Both the position numbers and the translations under genes were made by a program. Below, piece after piece: positions 14,601-58,008 of a stretch of 64,000 bases of DNA. Each line of letters opens with the position of its first letter. The stretch's first letter is position 1. The notes below the pieces were generated by a model. The model saw only the letters and a program-made list of their open reading frames with translations. It searched no databases and was not told the origin of the DNA. Source of the DNA: Herpetosiphon sp. NSE202 (GTDB lineage: Bacteria > Chloroflexota > Chloroflexia > Chloroflexales > Herpetosiphonaceae); assembly GCF_042688385.1 (NCBI RefSeq), contig NZ_JBHUPY010000007.1:322110-386109 (forward strand), written 5' to 3'.

Positions 14601-14679
14601 CATTGACGACATCAGTTTGATTACTGAAACCAATCAATGCCGTGGCGTTGGCGTGTATCTGCCAGCCGTCACCAAATAA
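11626..14679 (+). CDS. secreted zinc metalloprotease, M4 (thermolysin) family, with a roughly 500-aa C-terminal extension
   Basis: 1017 aa. Signal peptide (MRSMRMLRLLAALIVVSMLPLSRSNAQ), propeptide-like region, HELSHGVTE (HExxH) and downstream NEAMSD (Glu third zinc ligand), then a long Ser/Thr/Gly/Asn-rich C-terminal region. TATAAT at about 11453 and a roughly 170-nt leader. Confidence 0.85.
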   Translation: MRSMRMLRLLAALIVVSMLPLSRSNAQTPTTNAPINRLLNQGANLARHSQTGYVRWIGAAAGTTLDQPSGLNRADTVNVANAYVAEYGSLFGLAQASDAAVAKMTTTQDGRQVVRYQQRYQGVPVVAGELQVQLNQAGELLSMNGEVLPNLNLSTSATLSQANASSIAQNYVAAKYDANTANLNVSKNELSIYNPALLGGTGVQKNSLVWLVTVESDTSEPIREYVFVNAHSGEISLAFNQIGYAKNRFVCDDDNVIDNDNTPNNNCDEASEYVRTEGSAASGDADIDAAYDYSGDTYDFYNLFFGRNSIDNNGMNLISLVKHCPPGAGCPYGNAFWNGRQMTYGEGFAAADDVVAHELSHGVTEYTSNLFYYFQSGAINEAMSDIFGEFMDQTNGSADDDETTRWIMGEDLGGLRDMQDPPQGGQPDSMLSPLYVLDASLADNGGVHTNSGIANKASYLLTDGDSFNGQTINSIGITKTAHLFYETQISSLTSGSDYADLASALRQACSSLTGDHGITTADCAEVNKTILATEMDLQPTNAPAPDIKACSPGQTQVNVFADDFEALPNTKWTSSALSGSNESWTTNPAQIVGAYATSGNGSATNVNGVYGVNQDVEESAFSQNAAVTVPANGFAHFRHAYDFYSPLDAGVVEYSTNNGNSWQSAANLFSYNGPNNIAAGGEFAGEQAYVGNSNGYTASRLNLSSLAGQSVRFRFKVALGDNPTPSRSVTWSIDDFAIYSCSGAVTPAAPSLFVTSDVLAQQGKISSAVIGTASDDIDLAGSLAVSVAGAPAGLNVNVANQAGILKATVNCACATEVGSYPITVTVRDSGNRTASQVFNVEVETAGQSVIDGGFERGEGWEAFSSSFGDVSPPLCFLPGCAGEPRTGNSWLRFGARAGSTETAFAEQTFTSTASDATLEFYLSIYEHNGRGTQDYVKLSIDGEEVFRVTDANTEYDNGYAKVTIPLTDLEAGAHVLRFDSVNNSTAEIIRFSIDDISLITETNQCRGVGVYLPAVTK

Positions 14680-17117: not shown

Positions 17118-17138
17118 AGCCTTCTTCCTCTCTGGCTC

Positions 17139-19574: not shown

Positions 19575-19623
19575 TGGAGCATACTATCGAACCTTCTCAC
19601 AATCATAGCAAACTATGCTGAGC

Positions 19624-21954: not shown

Positions 21955-21957
21955 CGT

Positions 21958-24291: not shown

Positions 24292-24323
24292 TCCTCTCAG
24301 GGTATACAGTTTTACGCATTGGC

Positions 24324-24419
24324 TTAGCGGGGATACACATAGCGTACCCTGCTTCTAGGCGTGGCTTCGAGTTGGATGCGCCAAGCAAGCTCCCAATCTG
24401 CATCAGTTAGCTCAAATTG
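24324..24419 (-). pseudogene. out-of-frame remnant of the canonical C-terminus of the family, downstream of truncated paralog B1
   Basis: Minus-strand translation gives QFELTDADWELAWRIQLEATPRSRVRYVYPR*. This aligns with the C-termini of B2 (...QIDWRISEDVGLSEEIYYVYPR*) and B3 (...TEWRMAPMEINIETIRYLYPR*) but is in a different frame from the B1 ORF, which ends at 24412. Confidence 0.55.
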
Positions 24420-25932
24420 GGCAATCGGTTGGCGGCGCTAAAGGCGCAGGAGTTGCCAAAGAGTCAAGCACATAATTTGGCGTGGGCGTTGGGTCGACTA
24501 TTGCGTGAAACGCTGGGCCTAAAGGCTCAACCGCTGCCCCAACGACTTCGCCCAGCCAATAAATCTGTTGGGTATGCGCTTCAATCGGAGCTACGAAACT
24601 CTCAGTTGTGTCGGTTGAGCTATTCCAGCGATACACCAACGAGTGGTAAAAAAGCAGCTCTACGCTGGTCGGCGCTTCAAGCCATTGGTCAGCAATGCTT
24701 GCTGGGTAAAATAAGGTAGACGAATTCTGAAAACGCCGTGTTTGCAGTTCACCATCGGTTAATCGGTAGACCGAATAGTAATTCCGCTGTTGATTAATAT
24801 CGACTTCTTTTGCATTTGTATCACTCTTAACCAGCAACATGGTCTGATCAAGCGCTAAGATACTCCCGAATATCTCGCCCTTGATCGGTTGCTTTAAGCG
24901 CACTCTGCGCTCGGCCCCAGTCGCCCAATTGATCAAGCCCAGCTCGTCGCTAGTGCGAAAAATAGCCAATTCAGTTTGTTGGCCATCGCCCATAAGCGTG
25001 TTGTTGTAGCTCATTCCAAAGCTGGTCTGCAGGTTGGTCGCCGTGTCTAAGCGATAGAGTTGGCGCTGCTGCACAAACCAAATCTGGCCAGCAGCGGTCA
25101 CCACTGGCGCGCTATCCGGCTGAAACTGAAGATCGTTGCTTGGAGCTAACGCCCGACCATCAGCCAAGGCCAAATAGCTTAAGTGCCAAAGATTGGGCTG
25201 TTCGCCTTGCTCAAGCAAATACATGCCAGTTTTGGCCTGATCAAGCGCAAGCTTGCCGCCAAATTGATTGGGCAATAGCTGGTAGCGCCAGCGCTCACGC
25301 TTGCTCAGCAAATCGATTGCAATCAATTGCCGATTGCGGGGGATCAGCACAGTTTGCTGGGCTGGCAACAGCGCAACCAAGCCCTCGCTATTGGCATCAA
25401 TCGCAGCAATTGGCACTAATTGATTGGGATCGGCACGGTTCAAATAAACCTGCGAGCCAGCAGTATCGCGATTGATTAGATAGATATGGCGCTCAAACGC
25501 AGGTTCTGGAATTGCGGTTACAGTTGGCAATGGCGAAGCAGTGGCAAAAATAGCACGGGTCGCGACCGCCAGCGGAACAGCATCTGGCTTAATCGGTTCG
25601 GGCTTAATCAGCTCAGGGTCAAGCGTGGCTAGTGGGCCAAGTTGGTTGATTGGCAGCGCTGTGCGAGCTTGAGCACTTGGCGTGGCACGAGGAGTTGTGC
25701 TTGGAAATAGAACAATCGTGGCGGTCGGGCTGGGTTTAATCGTGGGCGAGGCAGCAAGCGCCACGGCTGTTGGCTGCTTGGTAGGGCTAGGTTGGGCTTG
25801 ATCAACAGCGCTTAAACCAAACAGCATACGCAGAACTAAGCCAAGCCCAATTACTGTGCAACTCAGCAGCAAAACCTGCCAACGGCGCACGTCATTACGA
25901 GCCTTGGCGGCAGAACGATCATCCATCAGCAA
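24412..25932 (-). CDS. paralog B1: internally deleted, frameshifted derivative (possible pseudogene) of the B-type members
   Basis: 506 aa. Anchor RRWQVLLLSCTVIGLGLVL. Collinear with the N-terminal roughly 480 aa of B2 and B3 up to ...YWLGEVVGAAVEPLGPAFHAIVDPTPTP, then terminates. The roughly 400-aa C-terminal domain seen in B2 and B3 is missing except for the out-of-frame tail at 24324-24419. Confidence 0.6.
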   Translation of the reverse strand: MLMDDRSAAKARNDVRRWQVLLLSCTVIGLGLVLRMLFGLSAVDQAQPSPTKQPTAVALAASPTIKPSPTATIVLFPSTTPRATPSAQARTALPINQLGPLATLDPELIKPEPIKPDAVPLAVATRAIFATASPLPTVTAIPEPAFERHIYLINRDTAGSQVYLNRADPNQLVPIAAIDANSEGLVALLPAQQTVLIPRNRQLIAIDLLSKRERWRYQLLPNQFGGKLALDQAKTGMYLLEQGEQPNLWHLSYLALADGRALAPSNDLQFQPDSAPVVTAAGQIWFVQQRQLYRLDTATNLQTSFGMSYNNTLMGDGQQTELAIFRTSDELGLINWATGAERRVRLKQPIKGEIFGSILALDQTMLLVKSDTNAKEVDINQQRNYYSVYRLTDGELQTRRFQNSSTLFYPASIADQWLEAPTSVELLFYHSLVYRWNSSTDTTESFVAPIEAHTQQIYWLGEVVGAAVEPLGPAFHAIVDPTPTPNYVLDSLATPAPLAPPTDCPI

Positions 25933-26081
25933 ACCCTCTCACTCGTGCTTGACCATGGGGAATAGTACGATCAAGCCTAGCGTAAGCGTCATGGGTTGCA
26001 CAATGATAGCAAGCTGATGCCAAGCTGAGTCGGGGGCTGAGGATCATAACCTGTGATCCAATCCCCAGCCCCTCTATTCAA

Positions 26082-28784
26082 TTAACGTGGATACACATAA
26101 TAAATCTCTTCGGAAAGGCCAACATCCTCGCTAATCCGCCAATCAATCTGCAATGCTTGGCCATCCCAGCTAAGTTGTTCAAGGCTTGGTTGCCACAAAT
26201 GCTGGGCCAGTAGCGTTTTGCCATCGTTATACAAGGCTACTGGTTTTTTGAGCGGATCACGCTTTGTACTAAATACGAGGCTTGGTTGTTGGGCGTTATA
26301 AACGCCAAGCCGTTGTTCGCGGACAATATTCCCAAAATCCAGCAACAACCAACGGCCATCAGGCGACCATAAAAATGGGCTTTCGCTACTCTCGGAATAC
26401 GCGCCTGAATCTAGTTGATACCAGCGTTGCTGCTCAAGCTGGTATAAGGCCGGAGCACTACTGCCATCAGCTGTTGGCAACATAAAAGCAAAGCTATTGC
26501 CTTCGGGCGAAAAACTCAGCGCATCGGCGGCTAATGGCAGCAAGGGCAGAGCAATATCGTGGCTCTGCTGCTTAACCAAATCGAGCACTCGCAGCAGCAT
26601 CGTTTTATTAGCAGCCGCCAGCGGGTAGATGAGCCAGCGTTGATTGGGCGCAACATACACCCGGGCCAGAATCGCATTGCTCACATCAGGAATGTTGGCC
26701 ACAATCGCGGGAATTTCAGCGATTTTTTCGGCTTGGAATGGCGGCCCGAGCTGCACCCGCCAAAGCGGTTGCGGGTTTTTGCTGGTTTGCAGAAAATAGA
26801 TGCTATCGCCTTGCCAAGCAAGTGGCTTAGCCCATTTCAATTCTGGCCAGGTGCGTGAATCGGCGAGCACATTCCATTCGCCAGTTTGGGTATTGATTTG
26901 CAGCAGTTGACTTGCCCCGATAAATTGATCGTTGCTGCGCATATCTTGGCCTACCACCACCATGCTTTGATAATTTGGCGCAAGCATGCTGTCGATAAAA
27001 CTTTCGTCGTTCAGAATCTTTTCAAATTTCCATTCGACAATTTGCTGGCTCACCGGATCAAGCAATTGCCATGTTGTTAATTTGGGGTGTTGCAGCACTA
27101 AGGGCGGCTGATTATAGCGCTCAAACAGCCTAGCGCCTTCCTCAACCAATACTTCAAGCGTTTGATCAGACGATAGCCGTTGCAAGCGTAAATCTAGGCC
27201 AAGCCGATCGCCAAAAATTGCCACTGGCTGAATGCTTGGAGGCTGAATCGTTGGCAAATTCGGCTGATCATACATTGGCACCATGGTTGGTAATGGGGTA
27301 ACCGCCGCTTGATATTCGCTATTCGCCAGATTAATCGCCGGGCCAGCGATCTCACCCAGCCATGCGATGCGATGATCGCCCCACACTGAAGCCGGAACAA
27401 CCTCGGTCAAGCTATTGGTTGCTACATTCCAACGGCTAACCAACCGCTGCTCACGCTCCCAATCGAAGCTTGAGATGAACCATTGATCGGCAGTTATGCC
27501 GGGATAGATTGAGCTAAGGCTGTCAAATTCGCTAATCCCAAGCAACTGCCCAGTTCGCAGGTTGTAGACCGAGCTGAAATACCGATCGTCAACGCGTGGA
27601 TCATCGCTACTGATCATGCTCTTAACCACCAAGGTTTGTTGGTTATGCGAGAACATGGCGCTGAGCAGATTGCCTTGAAACGGCGGATTTAATGCTACTT
27701 GCTGCTCATTGCCACTCGCCCAATCGATCAGGCTCAACGTGGTTGGTGCACGAAACACGCCTAAGAATGGTTGTGTGCCATCACCAACAATCTCATTCTT
27801 ATTAAGCGCACCAACATCGCGTTTAGCCATGGTTATGGGGTCAAATTGAAACAGTTTATCCTCTTCGATGCCCCAAATCTTGCCATCGCTGGTCATGATA
27901 TGGCTATGGCCTGGGAGAGTTAATGAGCTTGGGCCAGCAAGCAGTTGAGCATCCTGAATTGTGTGATGGCTCCACGCCCAACTTGCATCAACGCTACTCT
28001 GATCAAGCACATAGACCCCGCTGCCAGTTTGATCGATCGTCAGCATCGCTTTATGTTCATACTGGTTTTTGGGCAATAATTGCATACTCCAACGCGGCTG
28101 GCCCGTTTTGATGTCAATTGCAAATAAGCTTTGATTGCGCGGCAGCAGCAAGGTTTGTTGCTCGGGCAACAGTGCCATAAAGCTTGCTGCATACTCATCG
28201 ACGGTCGCAATTGGCACAAAGCCTGTGGCCGCAACTCGTACCAATTGATATTGCTCTGTATCAGCACGCACAATAATTGCATAGCTATGAGTTTGGCCAA
28301 CTGGCGTAGCTTGCGCAGTGAGGGTTGGCAACGGCGTAGGCGTTTGAAGCCCAAGCGTTGCTGCGGGAATCGTCGTTGTTGGTTGTTGAATAACGGGCAC
28401 AATCGTTGGCAACAACTCAGCATCATGCAGATCCTTGGTTGGAACGCTGGTGAATGCTGGCTCAATCGTCGCTAAGCGAAACTCGCCTGGGTCTGCTGGC
28501 AAAACTTGGATTGGCGGCGCTGATTGCTCTGGTTGCCAGGCAGGAAATGGTGCAGCGATCAAGGTCGGGCTAGGTTGAATACTTGGCGTAGCTGAACCAA
28601 GCAAGGCCACCGCACTCGCTTCAACATGCGCTTCATCAAGCGTACTTGGCATGAATGTGAGCACCAGCATCAAGCCAATTAAGCCCAGCGCACCAAGCAC
28701 TGGCAATACCCGCCACCAATTACGATCCTTGCTCAGTTTCACTCGTTCCCGTTGTGGTTGCATCGATATTGCTCCTCTATTCAA
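26082..28784 (-). CDS. paralog B2: signal-anchored two-domain beta-propeller-repeat protein
   Basis: 900 aa. MQPQRERVKLSKDRNWWRVLPVLGALGLIGLMLVLT anchor (an alternative start lies at 28763). The C-terminal domain carries LWSPDGRWLL (PD40 motif) and ends ...YYVYPR. Confidence 0.75.
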   Translation of the reverse strand: MNRGAISMQPQRERVKLSKDRNWWRVLPVLGALGLIGLMLVLTFMPSTLDEAHVEASAVALLGSATPSIQPSPTLIAAPFPAWQPEQSAPPIQVLPADPGEFRLATIEPAFTSVPTKDLHDAELLPTIVPVIQQPTTTIPAATLGLQTPTPLPTLTAQATPVGQTHSYAIIVRADTEQYQLVRVAATGFVPIATVDEYAASFMALLPEQQTLLLPRNQSLFAIDIKTGQPRWSMQLLPKNQYEHKAMLTIDQTGSGVYVLDQSSVDASWAWSHHTIQDAQLLAGPSSLTLPGHSHIMTSDGKIWGIEEDKLFQFDPITMAKRDVGALNKNEIVGDGTQPFLGVFRAPTTLSLIDWASGNEQQVALNPPFQGNLLSAMFSHNQQTLVVKSMISSDDPRVDDRYFSSVYNLRTGQLLGISEFDSLSSIYPGITADQWFISSFDWEREQRLVSRWNVATNSLTEVVPASVWGDHRIAWLGEIAGPAINLANSEYQAAVTPLPTMVPMYDQPNLPTIQPPSIQPVAIFGDRLGLDLRLQRLSSDQTLEVLVEEGARLFERYNQPPLVLQHPKLTTWQLLDPVSQQIVEWKFEKILNDESFIDSMLAPNYQSMVVVGQDMRSNDQFIGASQLLQINTQTGEWNVLADSRTWPELKWAKPLAWQGDSIYFLQTSKNPQPLWRVQLGPPFQAEKIAEIPAIVANIPDVSNAILARVYVAPNQRWLIYPLAAANKTMLLRVLDLVKQQSHDIALPLLPLAADALSFSPEGNSFAFMLPTADGSSAPALYQLEQQRWYQLDSGAYSESSESPFLWSPDGRWLLLDFGNIVREQRLGVYNAQQPSLVFSTKRDPLKKPVALYNDGKTLLAQHLWQPSLEQLSWDGQALQIDWRISEDVGLSEEIYYVYPR

Positions 28785-28949
28785 TCATGAGTGGCTATAG
28801 GCTATGGGCTTTGGGAACCGCGAAGCACACGAAGGTTTCCTTTTTTAGCCACGAATTGCCCGAAGCATAGATTGTAGTCACAGATTTTTTGCCTTCTGCC
28901 TTTTGCCTTTTGCCTTCATCCCCGATCCCCAACCCCCGATCCCCAACCC

Positions 28950-31613
28950 TCAACGCGGATACAGATAGCGAATCGTCTCAATATTGATTTCCATTGGAGC
29001 CATGCGCCACTCAGTTTGCCATTCTTGCTCCCGCCATGTCAACTGGGTAAAGGCCGGATTCCAAGGTTGGCCAGTTATGAGCGTTTTTCCATCGTTATCT
29101 AAGGCTAATAATCGATGCTCAGTCGGCTCAATCTGCGAACGCAAAGCTAGGCTTGGTTGCTGCGTATTATAGATGCTCAGGCGACGTTTAAGCCCAACAT
29201 AACCAAAATTCACCGCTAGCCACTTACCATCAGGCGACCATAAAAACTGGTCTTGGCTATGAGCATAAAAGCCTGCATCAAGCTGATACCAGCGTTGCTG
29301 CGCAAATTCATACAAGCCAACATAGTGATCATGCTTGGGGTTCAAGCTTGGTAGAATTAACCCAAAACGCTCACCATCGGGCGCAAAGCTCAAGCCCACC
29401 AGATCGATCAATGGCAGCGTCAATTCATGGCTTTGTTGCGCGACCAAATCGAGCACCTTCACCAACATGGTTTGCTTATTCGCCGTTGCCAGGGGATAGA
29501 GCAACCAGCGTTGGTTGGGAGAAACAATGATCCTGGCATAGATTGGGGCACTTGTAACTGCTGGATCATTGGCAACAACGCTGGGAATTTCGGCCAGTTT
29601 TGTGGCTTGAAACGGTGGGCCTAATTGCACCCGCCAAAGCACCTGCGGGTTCGGCCCAGCTTGGAGAAAATAAGCGCTATCGCCGTGCCATGCAATTGGT
29701 TTAGCCCATTGCAACTCAGGCCATGTCCTTGAATCAGCGAGAATATTCCATGCGCCGGTTTGCACATTAATCTGAACTAACTGACTGGAGCCAGTAAATT
29801 GATCACTGCGCTGTAAATCTTGGCCCACAATCACCAGCAAGCTGCGATAATCGGGTGCCAGCAAGGGGTCAAAATCCAACTCACCAGTACTAACAATTTT
29901 TTCAAATTGCCATTCCACAGTTCGTTGGGTGCTTAGGTCGAGCATTTGCCACTGGCGTGATTGGGGGCGTTGTAGCACTAAGGGCAACTGATTGTAACGC
30001 GGAAACGTGCGCACCACAAAATCGGCAAGTAACTCCGTGTGCAAGTCGCTATCGATCCGCTGAATGCCACCGTTAGCAGCAATCAAGGCCACGGGCTTGG
30101 TCGTAGCAGGCACGATCGTTGGCAAAGCTGTCTGTTCATAGATCGAAACAGGGCTAGGCAAGGGCGTAACCGCTGCTTGAAATTCACTTGCAAGCGGTTC
30201 AATTGGCACACCGCTAACCTCGCCAAGCCACAGAATGCCATTATCGCCAATGATCGTTGGCTCAACCACTTGGGTCAACGTATTGGTTGCCATATTCCAA
30301 AGGCTAAGATCGCGTTTGGAACTCACATAATCAGGCGTGATTACTAACCATTGATCGGCACTATTGGTTGGATAGAGGCTGCTAAACATATCATGCTTGA
30401 TCGTGGCAATCAATCGGCCAGTTTGCAGATCATAGGCTAAATAGTCATCATTTGCGCTGAACGAACTGGTAGGCGGAGCCGCACTATCAATAACTAAGAT
30501 CGTTTGATCGTTGGATAAAAAGCCTGCTCTGGGCATCCACTCAAATGGGCTTGCGTCTAATTCAACTGAACGCTCATCGCCAGTTGCCCAATTGATCAGG
30601 CTCAATGTTGTTGGGCTACGAAATACGCCCAATAACGGTTGGCTGCCATCGCCCAAAATTGTAGCATTGGAGAGTGAACCAAATTCTTGGTAGGCTTGGG
30701 TTGCAGGGTCATAGTGAAATAGGGTTTCCGGTGTGGAAAACCAAATATGGCCAGTGCTAGTGCGCAACAGTTGATCAACTGCTGGCAATTTAAAATTTTG
30801 GGCTGGTTGCAGCAAAATTCCATCATTCAACCCAAGGTGACTTAAACGCCAGGTCATCGTTGCTTGATTAATTTCAATCAGATAGACCCCAGTGCCAGCC
30901 TGATCAAGCGTCAAGTGACTTGTATAATCAAGCGCCGTTTTGGGCAACAAACCATAGCGCCATAGTTCGCGACCAGTCGCCAAATCAAGCGCAACCAATT
31001 GCTGATTGCGCGGAATCAAGACACGTTGTTGCGCAGGCAACAAGGCCATAAAGCGGTCGGCATAGGCATCAACGGCAGCAATCGAAACCAAATTATTGGA
31101 GTCGATTCGCACGAGGTTATGGCCCGCAGGATTATGCACAATCGCATAGCGCTGACTTTGGCTGGCTGGCGTTGAGCGCGCAGTTGGCGCTGGCAACGGC
31201 GTAACGGTTGCGGCTGGTAGATTGGTTGGTGCTGGCTCAATCACTGGCACAATCGTAGGTAAGCGAGTCGGATCACCGGGCAAATTAGGAGGAACGGTTG
31301 TCAGCGCAAGTTCTGGTTGCACCGTCACCAAACGAATCTCGCCCAGTTTATCGGGCACGAGCCGAATTGATGGTGGCTCTGTAGGGCGGGTAGGAAACGG
31401 CGCAGCAATCAAGGTCGGGCTAGGTTGAATACTTGGCGTTGGCGAGCCAAGCAAGGCCACAGCGCTTGGTTCAATTGGTGGCGCATCAGGCTCATTGGGC
31501 ATCAATGTCAGCGCCAGCATCAAACCAATTAAGCCCAGCGCCCCCACCACTGGCAACACCCGCCACCAATTGCGATCCTTGCCAAGTTTGACTCGCTCTC
31601 GTTGTGGTTGCAT
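28950..31613 (-). CDS. paralog B3: signal-anchored two-domain beta-propeller-repeat protein
   Basis: 887 aa. N-terminus MQPQRERVKLGKDRNWWRVLPVVGALGLIGLMLALT is nearly identical to B2. FLWSPDGKWLAV and SFAPDGERF motifs; C-terminal ...RYLYPR. The 5' flank is duplicated with that of B2. Confidence 0.75.
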   Translation of the reverse strand: MQPQRERVKLGKDRNWWRVLPVVGALGLIGLMLALTLMPNEPDAPPIEPSAVALLGSPTPSIQPSPTLIAAPFPTRPTEPPSIRLVPDKLGEIRLVTVQPELALTTVPPNLPGDPTRLPTIVPVIEPAPTNLPAATVTPLPAPTARSTPASQSQRYAIVHNPAGHNLVRIDSNNLVSIAAVDAYADRFMALLPAQQRVLIPRNQQLVALDLATGRELWRYGLLPKTALDYTSHLTLDQAGTGVYLIEINQATMTWRLSHLGLNDGILLQPAQNFKLPAVDQLLRTSTGHIWFSTPETLFHYDPATQAYQEFGSLSNATILGDGSQPLLGVFRSPTTLSLINWATGDERSVELDASPFEWMPRAGFLSNDQTILVIDSAAPPTSSFSANDDYLAYDLQTGRLIATIKHDMFSSLYPTNSADQWLVITPDYVSSKRDLSLWNMATNTLTQVVEPTIIGDNGILWLGEVSGVPIEPLASEFQAAVTPLPSPVSIYEQTALPTIVPATTKPVALIAANGGIQRIDSDLHTELLADFVVRTFPRYNQLPLVLQRPQSRQWQMLDLSTQRTVEWQFEKIVSTGELDFDPLLAPDYRSLLVIVGQDLQRSDQFTGSSQLVQINVQTGAWNILADSRTWPELQWAKPIAWHGDSAYFLQAGPNPQVLWRVQLGPPFQATKLAEIPSVVANDPAVTSAPIYARIIVSPNQRWLLYPLATANKQTMLVKVLDLVAQQSHELTLPLIDLVGLSFAPDGERFGLILPSLNPKHDHYVGLYEFAQQRWYQLDAGFYAHSQDQFLWSPDGKWLAVNFGYVGLKRRLSIYNTQQPSLALRSQIEPTEHRLLALDNDGKTLITGQPWNPAFTQLTWREQEWQTEWRMAPMEINIETIRYLYPR

Positions 31614-45425: not shown

Positions 45426-46238
45426 TTAGCTATTAACCCATATCAGCCCACGTTGCTGTTGCATGGCTAAAAGCGCCAGATTACGGATAAACGCTAAACC
45501 CAATGCCTCAAACGCCACATTCGGAAAATATTCTGCGCGCAAATCTTGATTCCAAAATGTTTTTAGGGCTTGCTGCATCGCTTCTAAGCTTGGTTTGATC
45601 GCTGGTAGCTCAAGTTTTGATAGGTGGTAGGCTAAACGTGCAGTTTCTGCTGGATCAAGCCAGCCATGAATCCCTTCTGCTGAGCCACCCCAACCATAGC
45701 CAATAACCCAGCCCCGTTGGCCCAAACGATTCAATAATTGATAGGCTGGATGTGCAGGCTCCATGCCTTGTTGCTCCAACCAAGCCTGATAAAAGCGCAT
45801 GGTAACGGTGCGCCCAACAAACATGCTTGGCCCTAAACACAGCAGATCAACAACTTCAGCGAAGAGCAACATCAGATCATCAGCCACGCCCTGCTGCCGA
45901 CTCGTGTGCAGCGGACATTGATTGATCTCAACACAGTTGCTTGAACGACAAGCACGCTCTTTCCATTCGACAAACCATGCTTTAGCGCTTTGATGCTGGC
46001 CATTCCAAGCCCAATCGTGATCAAGGTAGCTGCAATGCGCTTGGAAATCAGCGCCATGCAAAAATTTAGCCGCATAGTGCTCACGATAGGCAGGAAGCAT
46101 CACGTTATTGCTGCCCTGAATAATCGCGCCCAGCCATGGGGCCGCAACGCCCGTTTTGATAAAGGCTTGGATAGCGGGCACAACCAATTCACGATAAACC
46201 TGATAATCAAAAAGATGTACCTCTGCATCAGATCCCAT
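45426..46238 (-). CDS. hypothetical protein with no recognisable domain
   Basis: AAGGAG RBS 6 nt upstream of ATG 46238 (MGSDAEVHLFDYQ...); the ORF-track extension to 46358 is unlikely. 270 aa, Trp- and His-rich. Confidence 0.55.
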   Translation of the reverse strand: MGSDAEVHLFDYQVYRELVVPAIQAFIKTGVAAPWLGAIIQGSNNVMLPAYREHYAAKFLHGADFQAHCSYLDHDWAWNGQHQSAKAWFVEWKERACRSSNCVEINQCPLHTSRQQGVADDLMLLFAEVVDLLCLGPSMFVGRTVTMRFYQAWLEQQGMEPAHPAYQLLNRLGQRGWVIGYGWGGSAEGIHGWLDPAETARLAYHLSKLELPAIKPSLEAMQQALKTFWNQDLRAEYFPNVAFEALGLAFIRNLALLAMQQQRGLIWVNS

Positions 46239-46397
46239 CTGCTTCTCCTTTCTAGCCGAGCAACCAATCACAAAAATTTGCCTAGCTTTTGGCGATTCTC
46301 GCGCTATAATTAAACACTCAAACGTCGCAACCTTGATCAGCCCAACGCCCAATTCCACCCTACGCGAAAACCCCTAACTAGCATCCTGGAGTTCATT

Positions 46398-48599
46398 ATG
46401 CAGCATCTCCCCCAGTATTCGACCAGTTTAATTGGCCGCAGCCGCGTCGTTGCCGCCCTCGCTGACCTATTTCAACAGCAAGCTCAGCGCTTAGTTAGTT
46501 TGATTGGAGCCAGCGGCACTGGCAAAACGCGGCTTGGGCTTGAAGCTGCCGAAACTATTCGCGATAGTTTTGTTGATGGCTGCTACTTTATCAATCTTGC
46601 CCCAGTTGATGATGCTGTGTTTGTGCTGCCAACGATTGCCCACACTTTGGGCGTGCATGAAACCGCCAATCAATCGTTGCTTGATAGTTTGATTAATTTT
46701 TTGCAGGGCAAGCGGGTGTTGTTAATGCTCGATAATTTCGAGCAGGTTAAACAAGCTGCGACTGAGCTAAATCTCTTGATCGAAGGCACCGATCAAGCCC
46801 AATTTATGGTAACTAGCCAAGTGGCCTTGGGCTTGGCGAATGAATATGAGTTCAATGTGCCGCCGCTGGAAGTGCCCGACCAAGCGCAGCTGCCTGCAAG
46901 TGAATTATTGGCATATTCAGCAATTAGCTTGTTTGTTGATCGAATGCAAGCGATCCAGCCGCGCTTTGTGTTGAGCGATACCCAAGCCAAAGCTGTGGTC
47001 GAAATTTGTCGGCTGGTGCATGGCTTGCCCTTGGCGATTGAATTAATTGCCGCTCATAGCTCAGCGCTCTCACCAAGCGACTTATTGCTTTTGGTCCGCA
47101 ACTATTTGGCTCTAGGGCGCGGCGCAACGATTGCCAAACCAAGCAGACATCATGTGCTTTATCCAGTGCTCGATTGGTGCTTTAGCCGTTTATCTGCGCC
47201 CCAACAAACCTTATTTAGTCGCTTGGGAGCCTTTAATGGCGGTTTTTCCAGCGATGCGGTGATGGCGCTGTACCAAACCGCAGGCGAATTTCCCACAGCG
47301 GTTGATTCGGGGCTTGCCAGTTTGCAGCAAAAACATTTGCTGTTGCAAGAAACAATGCCTGGCCAACAGCCACGCTACATCATGCTCGATGCAGTGCGTA
47401 AATATGCCCATCAGCGTTTGCGCAAACGCAAAGAGGCCCAGCAAATCGAACTTTATCACGCCACCTACTACCGCGATTTGAGCGTGAGCGCCAAAGAAGA
47501 GTTGGGCGGCCCCAACAACGAATTCTGGACCAATCGGCTGCTCAGCGAGATTCATAATATTCGGGCGGCGCTGCAATGGGCCTTGAGCCACAACCAAGCG
47601 AATCTGGCCTTGCAACTCAGCAGCAATTTGGTGCGCTTTTGGATTCGCCAAGGCTACTTAAGCGAAGGCCGGCGCTGGATCAGTACCGCATTGGAACAGC
47701 AAACCAATGCCGAGCCAGCGACGGTGCGCACAGGTTTGGCTTCAGTCGGCGCGATCGCTTGGGTTCAAGGCAGTTATCGTGAGGCCAATACCTATCTCGA
47801 AACCGCCTTAGCAATTGAATCAACTAATCAGCATGAAACCGCCCGTTTGCTCAATACCTTGGGTTTGGTAGCCTACAACCAAGGACTTCACGAGCAAGCT
47901 AGTGCCTATTTTGAGCAAACCTTAGCCCTCTATCTAGAACTCTATCGAGAACGTGATGATCAAGCAATGATTGGAATTACGCTCAACAATCTGGGCTTGA
48001 TCGAAATTGATCGCGGCAATTTAGCGGCGGCGCGCCAAATTTATGCTGAAGTTTTAGCCCTTCTTCGCCCAGCCAATAACCCGTTTAATCTCATCATGCC
48101 GCTGAGCAACCTTGGCTTGATCGCGATTCTCGAAGAACGCTATGCTGAGGCCGAGCCATTGCTCGAAGAAGGCTTGGCGCTTTGCCGCGCGCATCGCGAT
48201 TACAACGGCTTAGGCTATTTTCTGACCAACTTAGCTGCCTGTTTGGCTGGCCAAGGCCGCTTTGAGCGTGCGCGCGATTGTTTGATTGAAGCCTTGGTTG
48301 TGCGTAACAATGCACAATCACAAAGTGGCATCGTGGAGGGAGCCAAAACCGCCAGCGAAATCTTGCTTAAGGCTGGCTTGGCGGAAGCGGCAGCACTGGC
48401 ATGGGGCTATGCCAGCGCCAGATTTGCCGAACTGCAAGCAAATCCAGTTTGGTACGACGAGCGCCAACAAACCATGATCGAAACTGGATTAACCACGACT
48501 CTTGGCAGTGAGCGCTTTGCAAGCCTCAAACACACTGGCGCGCAACAAACGATCGACGAGCTGATTAATCTGCTGCAAACTGCGAAGTTTATGCAGTAA
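46398..48599 (+). CDS. STAND-class P-loop NTPase (NB-ARC-like) fused to C-terminal TPR repeats, with no N-terminal effector or DNA-binding domain
   Basis: 733 aa. Walker A GASGTGKT at residues 37-44; Walker B hhhhLDN (VLLMLDNFEQ); a winged-helix-like middle region; a C-terminal roughly 350 aa of TPR-like repeats (LNTLGLVAYNQGLHEQA, LNNLGLIEIDRGNLAAA, LSNLGLIAILEERYAEA...). Confidence 0.75.
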   Translation: MQHLPQYSTSLIGRSRVVAALADLFQQQAQRLVSLIGASGTGKTRLGLEAAETIRDSFVDGCYFINLAPVDDAVFVLPTIAHTLGVHETANQSLLDSLINFLQGKRVLLMLDNFEQVKQAATELNLLIEGTDQAQFMVTSQVALGLANEYEFNVPPLEVPDQAQLPASELLAYSAISLFVDRMQAIQPRFVLSDTQAKAVVEICRLVHGLPLAIELIAAHSSALSPSDLLLLVRNYLALGRGATIAKPSRHHVLYPVLDWCFSRLSAPQQTLFSRLGAFNGGFSSDAVMALYQTAGEFPTAVDSGLASLQQKHLLLQETMPGQQPRYIMLDAVRKYAHQRLRKRKEAQQIELYHATYYRDLSVSAKEELGGPNNEFWTNRLLSEIHNIRAALQWALSHNQANLALQLSSNLVRFWIRQGYLSEGRRWISTALEQQTNAEPATVRTGLASVGAIAWVQGSYREANTYLETALAIESTNQHETARLLNTLGLVAYNQGLHEQASAYFEQTLALYLELYRERDDQAMIGITLNNLGLIEIDRGNLAAARQIYAEVLALLRPANNPFNLIMPLSNLGLIAILEERYAEAEPLLEEGLALCRAHRDYNGLGYFLTNLAACLAGQGRFERARDCLIEALVVRNNAQSQSGIVEGAKTASEILLKAGLAEAAALAWGYASARFAELQANPVWYDERQQTMIETGLTTTLGSERFASLKHTGAQQTIDELINLLQTAKFMQ

Positions 48600-48605
48600 G
48601 CAATG

Positions 48606-49190
48606 TTATGGGTGATAATTTAATGTTGTGCCATCAGCAAGCCAGCGACAACGATTCCATTTGGCTTTAATTGCTGCGACTTTTGGCTTATTAGGCACAT
48701 ATTCAGCATCCTGAATAAAATAAGCCCCAGTTGCATAGCATTCTTCGATTGCCGCCAACATCGTCGTTAATGAATCATAGATCTGTGCAGAACTATGATG
48801 GCAGAACCAGATTGAGCCATAAGCATCACGGGTTGCATCCATTTGAACCATATAGTATTCGCCCATAAAATCAAATAATGGGAATAAAAATGGTTCATAG
48901 GCTTCAGATCCAATTTCTCGATTGGTTTACATCAAGTCCTGATAAATTTGATAAGCAGCTTCGATCGAGAGAAAGTGATGATAATAGAATAATTGGGTAT
49001 CTTCATTATTCGTTCCGTTATGCCAGGCATAGAGTTCGAGAATCTCTGCTGGTAGAAGAAACGGTATCACACTGGCAATTTGTTCAGGGCTATAGGCTGG
49101 CTGTAAGGCAGTTAATAATTCAGGATCAACTTGCGCCGTATAGTTGGTAATTGATTCAAGCAACTGTTGAATACTTGCTGTTTGCGCCAT
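48606..49190 (-). pseudogene. SUKH (SMI1/KNR4)-family gene interrupted by a single in-frame TAA, either a pseudogene or a split gene
   Basis: Two ORFs (49190-48930 MAQTASIQQLL...QIYQDLM* and 48866-48606 MGEYYMVQMDATRDAYGSIWFCHH...) lie in the same frame, separated only by TAA (complement of 48927-48929) plus 60 nt that encode TNREIGSEAYEPFLFPLFDF. The junction reconstructs the SUKH core motif. Confidence 0.55.
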
Positions 49191-49191
49191 A

Positions 49192-50070
49192 CTAGATCTC
49201 AACCTCCAGCGTTTGCATAACTTTGGCCTGCCCACCAGCCAATAAACTCTGAATTGCTCCATCAGCCAGTTTGATTTGCACTTCGATCACGCTTGGCGAA
49301 GCTGGTTGCATCAGCCAACCTTGCTCGATCAAAAAGTTGGTTTGCTGCAAGCCTAGTTTATCGTACAAATAACAGGCCAGCGGGCCAGCAGCCATGCCAG
49401 TGCCTGCCTCCTCGCGAATGCCATAGCGCGGCGCGAACATACGCGTGCCCGCCGAGCGGCCAGCCTGTTTGGTCGCGGGCGTAAACACATAGTAGCCAAT
49501 CAAATCGAGTTGCTCGCTGATGTGTTGGATTTGCACAAAATTTGGTTGCAATTCGGCAAGGGTTTGCTCGCTCGCCAGCCCAATAATCAAAAAGCTATTG
49601 CCGGTATTGACCAAGGTTGGCAAACTCCCGCTCAGCAAGGCATCGCTGCCGAGATTGAGCGATTGCAAGGCTTGTTGCGCGATGGAGTCGCTTAGCTCAA
49701 ACTGCTGGTAGCGCGGTGCTACTTGCTGCATAAAAGCCTGATCATCAGCCACAATAATCTCGCGCAGCCCATCGATGGTTTCTTTGGAAAGCTGGCCCGC
49801 AGGCACGCGTTTGAGCTGGCGCAAAAGGCTAAATGTGGCGATTGTGGCGTGGCCGCAATGGGCAATTTGGCGAGTTGGGGTAAAAAATTCAAGTTTAATC
49901 GTGGCAACATCCGATGCGCTGACAAAGGCTGTTTCCGATAAACCAACCTGCTGCGCAACCGCCAATTTCTGTTCGGTCGTTAGGCCATCGGCCTGCAACA
50001 CGACCCCTGCTGGATTTCCGCCGCGAGCGCCATCAATAAACGCATTGACAATCTGAACTTCAAGCTGCAT
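49192..50070 (-). CDS. PhzF-family (phenazine biosynthesis-like) isomerase
   Basis: N-terminus QIVNAFIDGARGGNPAGVVL and the GLSETAFV motif typical of PhzF/YHI9; 293 aa. Its stop lies 2 nt from the SUKH-like start, suggesting translational coupling. Confidence 0.8.
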   Translation of the reverse strand: MQLEVQIVNAFIDGARGGNPAGVVLQADGLTTEQKLAVAQQVGLSETAFVSASDVATIKLEFFTPTRQIAHCGHATIATFSLLRQLKRVPAGQLSKETIDGLREIIVADDQAFMQQVAPRYQQFELSDSIAQQALQSLNLGSDALLSGSLPTLVNTGNSFLIIGLASEQTLAELQPNFVQIQHISEQLDLIGYYVFTPATKQAGRSAGTRMFAPRYGIREEAGTGMAAGPLACYLYDKLGLQQTNFLIEQGWLMQPASPSVIEVQIKLADGAIQSLLAGGQAKVMQTLEVEI

Positions 50071-50196: not shown

Positions 50197-52281
50197 CTAA
50201 TGGCGGGTTTTGGTGGACGAAACGCTATTGATTGTGCGTTGCAAATCGCTGAGTGTAAATGGTTTTTGCAAAAAGCCAGCCAAACCGTCATTCAACAAGG
50301 GATCAAGCATCGAATCGACGCTATAGCCACTCATTAACACAATCGACACATCGTTGCGAATGGCGCGCAAGCCATGGGCCGTATCGATGCCATTAAAGTG
50401 GGGCATCGTCAGATCGAGCAACACCAACTGATATTCGTTGGCATGCTCGCGAAAGGCCTTAATTGCACTCTGGCCATCACCAAATCCGCGCACAGTTAGG
50501 CCTAAACGTTGCAGCATGCGCTCAGTGACCATCCGAACTGCTGGTTCATCGTCGATCAGCATAACCAGATTGTGCACTGATTGAACAACATCGTTCGATG
50601 CTGCGGGGGTTGGCTGTAAAATCGAATGTGGTGGTAATAACACCGTAACCTCCGTTCCCATTTGGGGTTGGCTCCACACGGCAATCGAGCCATGATGAGC
50701 GCGTACCATGCCTAAGACTGCGGCTAAGCCAAGCCCGCGTCCGGCAAATTTTGTGCTGAAATAGGGATCAAACATCAGCCCTTGGGTGTGGGCATCCATG
50801 CCAACGCCGTTATCACGAATACTCAGGGTGATATAGCTGCCTGCGGGAAGTTTGGGCAAGCCAGTAGCGGTATGCGGAGCTTGAGCATAGGTTTGGAGCT
50901 TGCTGGTAATTTGAATTGCGCCAAACCGATGATCGATCGCCTCAATACTATTTTTGAAGATACTCAAGATGATTTGGTTCATTTGATTAACATCGCCCTT
51001 GAGTAGCCCCAATTGATCATCAAGCTCATAGGTTATGTTGGTCGTCGGGTGCGCCTGCTCACTAAACGTCGGGGTTAGCTCACGCAGTTGCGCATTCAGA
51101 TCGACAGGACTACTGACAAAGAGGCTGCTTCCGGTATAGGCGACAATTTGCTGGGTTAGCTCTGTAGCACGAATTGCGAGGGCTTCGATCTCTTGCAGTT
51201 GCTGGTAGATTGGGTGGGTTGGAATGAGATCGAGCAATCCTAGGCTAACATTGCCCCGAATGCCCATCAAAATATTATTGAAATCGTGGGCAATTCCGCC
51301 GGCGAGCAGGCCAAGACTTTTGCGTTTTTCGCGTTCGTTGGCAAGTTGTTGGGCAGCTTCACGTTGTTGGATGGCCGTATGATCGCGAATTACTATCTGT
51401 ACCGCTGAGTTACCAGCAAAAGTTATGGGAATAATCGTCAACCTTAGGGGGATTTCTGAGCTTTTAGTTGGGTCGTAGCGCAGTTCATGGCTCAGCGGCT
51501 GTTTGGTTGCCAGTGCTTGCTCAAACAGTTTTTGCACGGTATTCGAGCTTGGTTCAAGCATGCGCGCGAGATCGCTACCAAGAATTTGATAGCAGTTTTC
51601 AAAGCCAAGCAAGGCGATGCCAATCGCATTGATATAGACAATTCGGCCTGCCTGTTGTACCACAATCCCATCGGGCATGGCATCGAGCATGGCCCGATAA
51701 TGTTGGTCAATCAGGCTATTTGGTCGCCAGAGCGCCGCTTGACCAAGCGCATTGCTCACTTGGCGACACACATTGATCAACAGTGCAGCATCTGCTTGAT
51801 TAAAGGTATCAACGATGCTCTCAATCATCAACACGCCCAATAATTGCTGTCCAACCATCAGGGGAACGCAAATCGACGATTGGATATGCGGATGACTGCG
51901 AATAAAATCGGGATCTTGATCAACATAGGCCACCAAATAGGCTTGTTTGGTGCGAGCGCAACGGCCAACAATCCCCTGTTGAAAGCTCAATTGCTCAGGA
52001 TTATGGCCAAAACCATGCTGGCATTGGAGTTGCAGCATATCGGTGTGCGCTGCATAAATGCAAATGAAACTATTCGCAAAGCGCTCAGCAAGCACCGTTA
52101 CAAGCTGGCGATAGAGCATATCCAACGGCAAGTTTTGACCTAAAATTGATTCAATCTGTTCCAGCAGTCCATTACGATCAACGTCGGGCTGAACAGCGTC
52201 GGCGGCATATTCATATTCATGGCGAGCAGGATTAGGATGTGGGGCTACAGTCGGCTGTTCGCTGGCGTGGTGCGAGTCCAT
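50197..52281 (-). CDS. hybrid sensor histidine kinase (GAF, PAS, HisKA, HATPase_c, C-terminal REC)
   Basis: Start chosen at ATG 52281 (GGGAGGACGT upstream; MDSHHASEQ...). H-box IAHDFNNILMGIRGN; G-box GRGLGLAAVLG; C-terminal receiver (LIDDEP...VLLDLTMPHFNG). Confidence 0.8.
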   Translation of the reverse strand: MDSHHASEQPTVAPHPNPARHEYEYAADAVQPDVDRNGLLEQIESILGQNLPLDMLYRQLVTVLAERFANSFICIYAAHTDMLQLQCQHGFGHNPEQLSFQQGIVGRCARTKQAYLVAYVDQDPDFIRSHPHIQSSICVPLMVGQQLLGVLMIESIVDTFNQADAALLINVCRQVSNALGQAALWRPNSLIDQHYRAMLDAMPDGIVVQQAGRIVYINAIGIALLGFENCYQILGSDLARMLEPSSNTVQKLFEQALATKQPLSHELRYDPTKSSEIPLRLTIIPITFAGNSAVQIVIRDHTAIQQREAAQQLANEREKRKSLGLLAGGIAHDFNNILMGIRGNVSLGLLDLIPTHPIYQQLQEIEALAIRATELTQQIVAYTGSSLFVSSPVDLNAQLRELTPTFSEQAHPTTNITYELDDQLGLLKGDVNQMNQIILSIFKNSIEAIDHRFGAIQITSKLQTYAQAPHTATGLPKLPAGSYITLSIRDNGVGMDAHTQGLMFDPYFSTKFAGRGLGLAAVLGMVRAHHGSIAVWSQPQMGTEVTVLLPPHSILQPTPAASNDVVQSVHNLVMLIDDEPAVRMVTERMLQRLGLTVRGFGDGQSAIKAFREHANEYQLVLLDLTMPHFNGIDTAHGLRAIRNDVSIVLMSGYSVDSMLDPLLNDGLAGFLQKPFTLSDLQRTINSVSSTKTRH

Positions 52282-55901: not shown

Positions 55902-56906
55902 ATGCAGGGTATTTCGGCTTGGTTGCGCGCAAACCAGCGTTGGGTCATTATTAGTGCGCTTATGTTTGGCTTGGTTGGTTCTGTTGCGGGACAAGCTCCA
56001 CAAACGATTGCTGGCGGCAGCATGAACTATCTGCCAGTTGTCATGTCCAACCCGCTGCTTGATATTCACAATCGCCAATCAGTGGTCAATTTTTATACCA
56101 ATTATTATAAAGTTGGCATGGCTACAGGCTGGACGGGCAATGCCAGCACCTGCACGCCTGGCACGACCAGCCAAGCCTTCCGCGACAATGTGCTAGCCCG
56201 CGTTAATTATTTTCGGCTTTTAGCAGGCATGGGCACTGTTACTTTTGATCCAGTGTTGAATGCCAAAGCGCAGCAAGCAGCCTTGATGATGAGCCGCAAC
56301 CGCACCCTCAACCACTATCCGCCAAGCACATGGCTGTGTTATACGGCCGAGGGCAAAGAAGCAGCTGGTAAATCAAATTTAGCTGGCGGAATTACGGCCA
56401 ATGGTGTTACCGCGATTGAGCTATATATGGACGATAGTGATGAGCCAACTGTGGGGCATCGGCGTTGGTTGCTGTACACGCCAACCCGCAAAATGGGCAC
56501 TGGCGATGTCGATGGCCAAAACGGCACAATTGACGCTAACAGTTTGTGGGTCGTTGGCAATACTGGCCCGCGCCCAGCCACCCGCACCGAATATATCGCT
56601 TGGCCGCCGGCAGGCTTTGTGCCATTTAGCCATGTCGTCAAACGCTGGTCATTTAGCTTGCCTAGCGCTAATTTCGCCAATGCAACGGTTACGATGCAAA
56701 AAGCCAATCAACCGCAAGCCACCACGATTGTTTCGCGCAGCAGTGGCAGCGGTGATAATGCACTTGTGTGGGATGTTGCAGGCTATATCCACTGGCCTGC
56801 GCCTGCAACCGACGTTACCTACACGGTCAATGTAAGCAATGTGGTGCATAACGGCCAAACGCGCTCATTTAGCTACCAAGTCACCGTAATTGACCCAAAT
56901 CGTTAG
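55902..56906 (+). CDS. secreted CAP-domain (SCP/PR-1-like, YkwD-type) protein, paralog 1
   Basis: Signal peptide; ...VNYFRLLAGMGTVTFDPVLNAKAQQAALMMSRNRTLNHYPP...GHRRWLLY, a bacterial CAP pattern. Confidence 0.65.
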   Translation: MQGISAWLRANQRWVIISALMFGLVGSVAGQAPQTIAGGSMNYLPVVMSNPLLDIHNRQSVVNFYTNYYKVGMATGWTGNASTCTPGTTSQAFRDNVLARVNYFRLLAGMGTVTFDPVLNAKAQQAALMMSRNRTLNHYPPSTWLCYTAEGKEAAGKSNLAGGITANGVTAIELYMDDSDEPTVGHRRWLLYTPTRKMGTGDVDGQNGTIDANSLWVVGNTGPRPATRTEYIAWPPAGFVPFSHVVKRWSFSLPSANFANATVTMQKANQPQATTIVSRSSGSGDNALVWDVAGYIHWPAPATDVTYTVNVSNVVHNGQTRSFSYQVTVIDPNR

Positions 56907-56979
56907 GGCAGATGGGCTATAGCCAAAATGCCAAATATTTGTCAAAATTCATTAACGAATCAATCAATGGAGGCATGGT

Positions 56980-58008
56980 ATGCAAGTGGCACACGACAGG
57001 CCGCGCAAGCGCTGGCTGGGTTTGGTTATTGCAAGTTTGGTGTTTTTGGGCATCGTTGCCCCGCTTGCAGCCCAAGAACCCCAAGCAATTACTGGTGGCA
57101 GCAAAACCTATTTTCCAGTCGTCACCTCGAACCCTGAGCTTGATATTCACAATCGCCAATCGGTTGTCAATTTTTATACCAATTTCTATTTGCCCAGCAA
57201 TAATGTTACCGATGGCTGGACTGGCAATCAAGCCACATGTGATGCTGGCACAACGAGCCAAGCCTATCGCGATGCGATTCTGCTACGGGTCAATTATTTT
57301 CGTAAAATGGCTGGCCTCGCCGCCGTCACCCTCAACGCAAGCTACAACAGCCAAGCTCAACAAGCAGCATTAATGATGAGTCGCAACAATAGCCTCAACC
57401 ACAATCCGCCAACCTCGTGGGCTTGTTATACCACCACTGGCAAAAATGCCGCTGGTAAATCGAATCTCTATTTAGGCCAACTCGGGCCAGGCGCAATCAC
57501 GGGCTATATGCTCGATCCTGGTGCTGGCAATAGCTCTGCTGGGCATCGGCGCTGGATTCTGTATCCCCAAACCAAATCGATTGGCACTGGCGATGTGCCA
57601 AGCCGCAGCGGCTACGCTGGCTCGAACGCCTTATATGTGATTACCAGCGATTTTGGCACAGCACGGCCTGCCACCCGCACCGAGTATGTGCCTTGGCCGC
57701 CTGAAGGTTTTGTGCCCTATCAAGTCGTGTTTGGGCGCTGGTCGTTCGCCTTGCATAATGGCAATTTTACCAATGCGACTATTAGCATGCGCCAAGGCAG
57801 CACGACGATTCCAGTTACCAAAGAAACCGTTGCCAATGGCTACGGCGAAAATACCATCGTTTGGATTCCGCAGGGCTATAACCATAGCTCAAGTTGGGGC
57901 AATCCGGGTGCAGACACAACCTACACAATTACAATTGGCAATGTGATTGTCAATTCGCAAACACTCAGCTTCACCTATAATGTGACCGTGATTAATCCAA
58001 ATCAATAG
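56980..58008 (+). CDS. secreted CAP-domain protein, paralog 2 (tandem duplicate)
   Basis: Collinear with 55902-56906: ...VNYFRKMAGLAAVTLNASYNSQAQQAALMMSRNNSLNHNPP...GHRRWILYPQ. Confidence 0.65.
   Translation: MQVAHDRPRKRWLGLVIASLVFLGIVAPLAAQEPQAITGGSKTYFPVVTSNPELDIHNRQSVVNFYTNFYLPSNNVTDGWTGNQATCDAGTTSQAYRDAILLRVNYFRKMAGLAAVTLNASYNSQAQQAALMMSRNNSLNHNPPTSWACYTTTGKNAAGKSNLYLGQLGPGAITGYMLDPGAGNSSAGHRRWILYPQTKSIGTGDVPSRSGYAGSNALYVITSDFGTARPATRTEYVPWPPEGFVPYQVVFGRWSFALHNGNFTNATISMRQGSTTIPVTKETVANGYGENTIVWIPQGYNHSSSWGNPGADTTYTITIGNVIVNSQTLSFTYNVTVINPNQ

Follow-up and report, generated by a model that had tools for sequence, protein, structure and literature searches.

A probable recent single-base pseudogene of the SUKH-1 family behind a PhzF-family gene in Herpetosiphon sp. 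NSE202

Has a SUKH-family gene that is interrupted by a single in-frame stop codon been lost by recent mutation, does the stop reflect an error in the assembled sequence, or do the two halves still yield a working protein, and was that protein ever part of an immunity system? These questions are raised by two adjacent minus-strand ORFs in a 64-kb stretch of DNA from Herpetosiphon sp. NSE202 (hereafter the window), which directly follow a PhzF-family gene. The initial annotation had described them as one SUKH (SMI1/KNR4) immunity-type gene broken by one in-frame TAA, and had left open a recent nonsense mutation, a sequencing error, and a readthrough or split arrangement.

Translation of the minus strand from 49190 to 48606 gave a single frame that starts with MAQTAS, runs to IYQDLM, meets a TAA, continues through TNREIGSEAYEPFLFPLFDF into MGEYYMVQMD and ends with NYHP and a terminal TAA (48608..48606). 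The disrupted SUKH-1 (SMI1/KNR4) gene (48606..49190, minus strand) thus comprises 194 codons, including one internal TAA at codon 88 (48927..48929, minus strand), and the terminal stop. It begins with an N-terminal ORF of 87 codons (48930..49190, minus strand). Between the internal TAA and the next ATG, 20 sense codons (TNREIGSEAYEPFLFPLFDF; 48867..48926, minus strand) are stranded, and they are followed by a C-terminal ORF of 86 amino acids plus stop (48606..48866, minus strand), which begins at the internal Met109 (ATG 48866). The two ORFs therefore do share a frame, with a gap of 63 nt (TAA plus 20 codons; TAA 48929..48927 to ATG 48866) between them, as had been claimed. The length of 217 residues originally given for the fused product has to be corrected to 194 codons; the higher figure counts from 49262, where the PhzF gene contains an ATG that neither the orthologues nor the NCBI annotation use as start. 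We found no second stop or frameshift in the SUKH frame, the rest of which is undamaged.

The fused translation matched Pfam family PF09346 (SMI1_KNR4) at 30.9 bits (E 4.6e-7; gathering score 25.4 bits) over residues 43-146, a region that spans the stop. When the halves were compared separately, the N-terminal one scored 14.1 bits and the C-terminal one gave no match, so that neither passes the threshold. By its match across the stop, the fused frame is a SUKH-1 sequence above the curated cut-off, in agreement with the family originally assigned to it, and the profile comparison that might have removed it from that family did not do so; the window copy itself lacks the uninterrupted coding sequence of a functional member, owing to the TAA at codon 88. 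The 63-nt stretch had further been credited with the most conserved motif of the family. It does hold the subfamily-invariant LFP, but LYxWHNG and LFYYH are equally invariant and lie in the N-terminal ORF. In the NCBI annotation, only the 87-residue piece is present, as a "hypothetical protein" of Herpetosiphon sp. NSE202 (WP_382291831.1 / MFD3164500.1). An exact-sequence look-up of the 86-residue C-terminal sequence in the protein collection found no entry, and the C-terminal ORF is therefore unannotated.

A search of 5.8 billion proteins returned nine relatives: P0002 (187 aa, 88% identical), which matches locus L008 of H. giganteus DSM 589; P0001 from H. llansteffanensis (194 aa, 85% identical); P0003 from a Chloroflexota metagenome-assembled genome (195 aa, 77% identical); five further proteins of 46-51% identity; and P0009, a truncated fragment. 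Every full-length relative is one uninterrupted protein that aligns end to end with the fused frame, which places the match of the frames beyond chance, and the orthologues carry a precomputed PF09346 match. In the DNA alignment (A2), ATGTAAACC of the window corresponds to ATGCAAAC in the Herpetosiphon loci L001 and L005, the codons at the lesion reading ATG-TAA-ACC in the window versus ATG-CAA-AC(C/A) in the other two. The codon-88 column is occupied by Gln or Arg in the eight homologues that have it, while P0002 is without this column. Because the intact orthologues read CAA (Gln) at codon 88, the lesion amounts to one C-to-T transition. Comparison with intact orthologues, which the initial annotation had advised, thus revealed one continuous gene and ruled against two independent genes at this position; with continuous orthologues that carry CAA, a recent nonsense mutation and a sequencing error were the right options to consider. 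Met109 is ancestral rather than a new start, as it is present in P0002, P0004, P0006 and P0007 in the protein alignment. The fragment P0009 (120 aa, from a 909-bp Logan contig) closely follows P0005 as far as the LFP motif but not beyond; it is the second copy of this SUKH subfamily to be truncated or frameshifted, and belongs to a different lineage.

The missing column in P0002 reflects a 21-nt in-frame deletion of codons 85-91 (DLMQTNR) in the H. giganteus lineage, so that the codon at which the window has TAA is missing there. The deletion is present in four independent contigs (L002, L003, L004 and L008) and is flanked by AG/AG microhomology; the chance that it would cover this very codon is about 3.6%. 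Its tolerance is plausibly explained by the modeled structure of the orthologue, in which the seven residues would correspond to two turns of a long helix (residues 76-93).

A PDB sequence search with the family profile gave marginal matches only (Knr4, E 0.86), and a fold search was therefore needed. The AlphaFold2 model of P0001 (pLDDT 80.8, pTM 0.81) shows helices at residues 7-19, 25-28, 35-41, 48-56, 76-93 (the long helix), 141-153 and 168-178, a short strand at 71-73, and further strands at 102-108, 111-116, 127-130 and 134-138 as well as 157-160 and 163-166. In Foldseek searches against the PDB, the best match was the core of yeast Knr4 (E 1e-7, TMq 0.74), followed by the SUKH domain of human FBXO3 (TMq 0.62) and then by BF1740, YobK and Syd (TMq about 0.4). 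The SUKH core fold has been defined by conserved helices, a β-hairpin and a four-stranded β-meander (PMC3113570), all of which are seen in the P0001 model; judged from this model, P0001 is a long SUKH form of the Knr4/FBXO3 type. The Herpetosiphon protein resembles the long-form structures (Knr4 core, PDB 5j1b and 8aj2; FBXO3, PDB 9kbf) in its PF09346 match, in superposition and in the order of helices followed by the meander. Points of difference are a sequence identity to Knr4 of only 13-14%, a stand-alone architecture in a bacterium, lacking both the disordered arms found in Knr4 and the F-box context seen for FBXO3, and, for the window copy, the interruption at codon 88. Transferred from the P0001 model, the N-terminal ORF would cover helices 1-4 and the first short strand and extend through most of the long helix. 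As codon 88 lies within that helix, the window's own 87-residue product would end before the four-stranded meander, lacking all of it and everything that comes after, and would thus, according to the model, miss more than half of the SUKH fold.

The gene upstream encodes an intact PhzF-family isomerase of 292 residues (49192..50070, minus strand; ATG at 50070, TAG at 49194..49192), which is 100% identical to the protein that NCBI likewise names a PhzF family protein of Herpetosiphon sp. NSE202. It scores 157.5 bits against Pfam PF02567, covering positions 1-279 of the 281 in the profile, and 172.9 bits against NCBIfam TIGR00654 (cut-off 76.2). It is thus a full-length member of the PhzF/YddE isomerases, with no phenazine-biosynthesis genes around it. 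That a PhzF-family gene directly abuts the SUKH gene, as first described, was borne out by the PF02567 match, except that the spacer is 1 nt rather than 2 nt long (49191..49191, minus strand; TAG-T-ATG, with the SUKH ATG at 49190). Further upstream follows a hybrid sensor kinase gene (GAF-PAS-HATPase-receiver; 50197..52281, minus strand), which encodes 694 residues if the Met of the orthologues is the start; the orthologue carries these Pfam domains in L001 and L002.

At the other SUKH-bearing Herpetosiphon loci (L001, L002/L008 and L005), the spacer between PhzF and SUKH is likewise 1-2 nt, and we detected no minus-strand promoter-like or terminator-like site between the two genes. The pair thus has the strand, the stop-start spacing of a few nucleotides and the uninterrupted junction of coupled genes. 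Because the spacer is this short wherever SUKH is present, and because no promoter or terminator intervenes, co-transcription and translational coupling of PhzF and SUKH are plausible from the sequence. A functional PhzF-SUKH module was rejected on co-occurrence across lineages: PhzF is found without SUKH at four other loci (L049, L052, L053 and L054) and in Halomonas and Oceanisphaera, and at 42 of 42 distant loci (L006, L007 and L009-L048) the SUKH relatives have no PhzF gene within about 6 kb. Along its entire length, the PhzF protein shares 60-65% identity with homologues that stand alone in Gammaproteobacteria (Halomonas, Oceanisphaera, Marinobacter and Pseudomonas taeanensis), and no SUKH neighbor was found beside the homologues in Halomonas and Oceanisphaera. 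For this reason, neither a phenazine pathway nor a partnership with SUKH can be deduced from the PhzF gene. The identity of 60-65% across phyla is unusually high and suggests horizontal transfer. A literature search for joint mention of "SUKH" and "PhzF" returned general reviews only, and a search for mention of strain NSE202 found none.

The four Herpetosiphon loci without SUKH sequence after PhzF (L052, from the H. llansteffanensis type strain, GCA_003205875.1, as well as L049, L053 and L054) carry in its place a gene of 32% GC on the opposite strand (L052:3884-4477, L049:4909-5505, L053:1543-2136, L054:1824-2417). Its product of 197-198 residues is a predicted multi-pass membrane protein that is unrelated to SUKH and gave no match in Pfam, NCBIfam or PADLOC. 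The SUKH-bearing H. llansteffanensis locus L001 shares 96.3% identity with L052 across 3.9 kb that run to the final base of the PhzF stop, where homology ends; the swap of cassettes thus starts exactly at the PhzF stop codon, and it separates two assemblies of one named species. Likewise, L005 (with SUKH) and L052 (with the membrane protein gene) share PhzF and psyrA as flanks around different cassettes of about 630-660 nt. The GC content is 40% for the SUKH gene, compared to 53% for PhzF and 51% for the window. By these comparisons, the region after PhzF is a variable slot, of which SUKH is one dispensable occupant. As this slot holds alternative cassettes in different strains, the junction of SUKH with PhzF looks positional.

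On the other side of the SUKH gene lies a convergent gene for a STAND-type NTPase (AAA_16/NB-ARC) with TPR repeats, assigned by Pfam and NCBIfam (733 aa, intact; 46398..48599, plus strand), the stop of which is 6 nt from the SUKH stop and which is syntenic in L001 and L008. Its product measures 729 residues in L001, and in H. giganteus DSM 589 two overlapping ORFs of 395 and 353 residues take the place of the single gene (L008:6571-8771); this split looks like a frameshift, and would be another pseudogene or an assembly error in H. giganteus. At L005 and L052, a PsyrTA (RqlHI) pair separates the cassette from the STAND NTPase gene (L005:6602-9918, L052:4515-6879), its two members being PsyrA, which is DprA/SLOG-like (509 bits), and PsyrT, a RecQ-like helicase-PRTase (954 bits); the pair is absent from the window. 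PsyrTA (RqlHI) has been named as a toxin-antitoxin/anti-phage system (bioRxiv 10.1101/2022.05.11.491447). An imperfect 24-nt inverted repeat (48618-48641 and 49174-49197; 71% complementary) at the ends of the SUKH gene lies inside coding sequence and was treated as probably due to chance.

A rival reading to an ordinary accessory pseudogene is that the SUKH gene is the remnant of an orphan immunity or defense cassette. The SUKH gene and the membrane protein gene would then be interchangeable protective genes in a hot spot of conflict genes, and the TAA would mark turnover once the selective agent had been lost. Immunity proteins are known from the SUKH superfamily (PMC3113570), and the Herpetosiphon gene shares with such proteins (e.g. 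B. subtilis YobK, PDB 2prv) the superfamily, the small cytoplasmic product, the low GC content and a patchy distribution, here down to presence/absence polymorphism inside one named species. The slot adjoins PsyrTA in L005 and L052, and in L005 and L049 an McrA-like HNH gene is close by. In addition, P0001 weakly matched the PADLOC candidate-defense profile PDC-M40A (E 2.5e-6); the match is confined to the N-terminal half and keeps a defense-related role possible.

The immunity inference for SUKH proteins rests, however, on three contexts, i.e. tandem SUKH arrays, linkage to nuclease genes, and linkage to giant repeat proteins whose C-terminal toxin domains are polymorphic, with the immunity gene coming after the toxin gene (PMC3113570). 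None of the three was encountered here or at 18 related loci. No Rhs-type, nuclease-toxin or filamentous-haemagglutinin gene was found in the 64 kb, and tblastn of the orthologue against the whole window gave a single match, i.e. there is no tandem SUKH array or other paralogue. Pfam searches of 30 further ORFs across the window, together with PADLOC and NCBIfam searches of the neighbors, revealed no toxin-type domain, as had been noted before, a result that proteins without Pfam match, such as that of the 310-aa ORF 45426..46358, could escape. Instead, the Pfam matches comprise dnaK, dnaJ, hrcA, a penicillin-binding protein, HtrA, a DinG-like helicase, glycosyltransferases, CAP-domain proteins, leucine-biosynthesis-type enzymes, an M4 peptidase, sensor kinases and the STAND NTPase-TPR protein. 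At these 18 loci, which carry more distant relatives (Chloroflexota, cyanobacteria and others), no toxin family recurs among 36 flanking or fused proteins, and the neighbors are housekeeping-type genes. The gene adjoining SUKH upstream is a PhzF isomerase, not a toxin gene as for SUKH immunity proteins, and the orthologue model is closest to Knr4 and FBXO3, its similarity to YobK being weak (TMq 0.40, E 0.03). We therefore regard the immunity label as a family-level prior that is not supported at the NSE202 locus. Of the phrase "orphan immunity gene remnant" in the initial annotation, a loose "orphan accessory gene remnant" is a fair description, and the immunity part lacks support. As an explanation of the locus, an orphan immunity or defense cassette is unlikely. 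Its more far-reaching version, in which the slot would be a hot spot where low-GC protective cassettes (SUKH or the 197-aa membrane protein, with or without PsyrTA) replace one another by recombination in predatory Herpetosiphon, SUKH an orphan immunity or defense factor against toxins or phages met in predation, and the NSE202 TAA a snapshot of cassette turnover, is speculative and appears more doubtful still.

Elsewhere in the window, seven consecutive large minus-strand ORFs (14817..31613; 766, 811, 776, 777, 506, 900 and 887 aa) have no Pfam match at E <= 1e-5. They are paralogous, with some pairs 41-59% identical and others 22-38%, and their N-termini resemble signal, lipoprotein or membrane anchor sequences that are followed by linkers rich in Pro, Thr, Ser and Gln. 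They adjoin a gene for an M4 thermolysin-like peptidase (11626..14679). Toxins with variable C-termini were considered and rejected for these paralogues, as they look membrane-anchored or lipoprotein-type with Pro/Thr-rich linkers; they may be surface or secreted proteins of a predatory bacterium. Two tandem genes of the CAP/cysteine-rich secretory protein family (334 and 342 aa) lie at 55902..58008.

How old is the stop? Nei-Gojobori dN/dS values were 0.15-0.27 in all SUKH pairs, with the window included or not, and 0.07-0.10 for PhzF. By these ratios, purifying selection acts on the intact SUKH gene, and no relaxation is detectable for the window copy. Parsimony assigned 10 silent and 11 replacement changes in SUKH privately to the window branch, and neutrality over the branch was rejected (p = 0.005), which makes the stop recent relative to the split from H. 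giganteus. An ancestral TAA that was rescued in H. giganteus by the 21-nt deletion is disfavored by this signature of purifying selection on the window branch. Three of the private replacements (G32A, V137I and D167N) fall at otherwise invariant columns, a weak hint of slight relaxation in a number too small to weigh. The rate of SUKH on the window branch is 3.2 times that of PhzF (p = 0.002), with silent changes also raised and the divergences discordant between the two genes; this pattern more likely reflects separate histories of the cassettes than old decay.

With no second lesion and an unchanged dN/dS, the stop should be either recent or a base-call error, and both fit equally. In the latter case, the true genome would read CAA, and the gene would be intact and encode a normal SUKH-1 protein of 194 residues. 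A difference of one base with no further lesion and with dN/dS indistinguishable from that of the intact orthologues is what such a sequencing or assembly error would leave behind. Moreover, a look-up of the 87-residue fragment traced the TAA allele to one assembly only, and an exact-pattern scan of metagenome contigs found neither this allele nor the intact one. Against an error, the window is otherwise clean, with 91% covered by ORFs, more than ten ORFs of 700-1017 residues and no other split gene; this argues for a low assembly error rate, which makes an erroneous stop in this one gene of 585 bp unlikely a priori. In addition, C-to-T is the commonest spontaneous mutation, and real decay would be expected of a gene that is dispensable in the genus. 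On balance, we consider an error rather improbable and a real mutation likely.

That the TAA is instead read through, or that the halves are made separately and reassembled into a working SUKH domain, is highly improbable: both halves are in frame and undamaged, and an ATG lies 60 nt beyond the stop, but the stop is not conserved, the full-length relatives having Gln or Arg at this position or the seven-residue in-frame deletion; TAA is the commonest stop in the window, ending 21 of 37 long ORFs and also the SUKH gene itself; ATG 48866 is not preceded by a purine-rich ribosome-binding motif and encodes the ancestral, internal Met109; and a product starting there would miss the first meander strand (residues 102-108), with the invariant LFP remaining in the 20 stranded codons. 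The stop conserved among orthologues that would mark programmed readthrough is thus not seen, and the readthrough or split arrangement that the initial annotation had entertained finds no support.

Based on these results, we suggest that the NSE202 region corresponds to the gene for a small cytoplasmic protein of the SUKH-1 (SMI1/KNR4) family, 194 residues long, and that this orthologue has probably been inactivated by a single C-to-T change at codon 88 (CAA to TAA). The SUKH gene would be transcribed with the upstream PhzF-family gene, translation would probably be re-initiated at the stop-start junction between them, ribosomes would terminate at codon 88 of SUKH, and the truncated product, going by the model of the orthologue, would be non-functional. 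Since the next gene is convergent, the stop would have no polar effect. SUKH constitutes a low-GC accessory cassette, dispensable in the genus, in a variable slot that begins exactly at the PhzF stop; the TAA would therefore represent the first step in the decay of a non-essential gene. The intact protein is, by analogy with other SUKH domains, probably a protein-binding module, with a partner other than a linked toxin.

In all, the locus holds an accessory SUKH-1 gene that has undergone ordinary, recent single-base pseudogenization, unless the consensus is in error, which is less likely. It shares with ordinary bacterial pseudogenes of the single-nonsense type the one substitution, the premature stop, the otherwise intact accessory gene and the tendency of pipelines to call only the first fragment; the sole curiosity is the sister lineage of H. 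giganteus, with its 21-nt in-frame deletion over the same codon. Proper annotation would be one SMI1/KNR4 pseudogene with an internal stop, not a hypothetical protein of 87 residues, and the locus should not serve to illustrate split genes, readthrough or immunity systems associated with PhzF. Beyond annotation, the finding matters little. The clean swap of cassettes at the PhzF stop within one species, near PsyrTA in some strains, is of modest value for mapping variable and defense islands in Chloroflexota.
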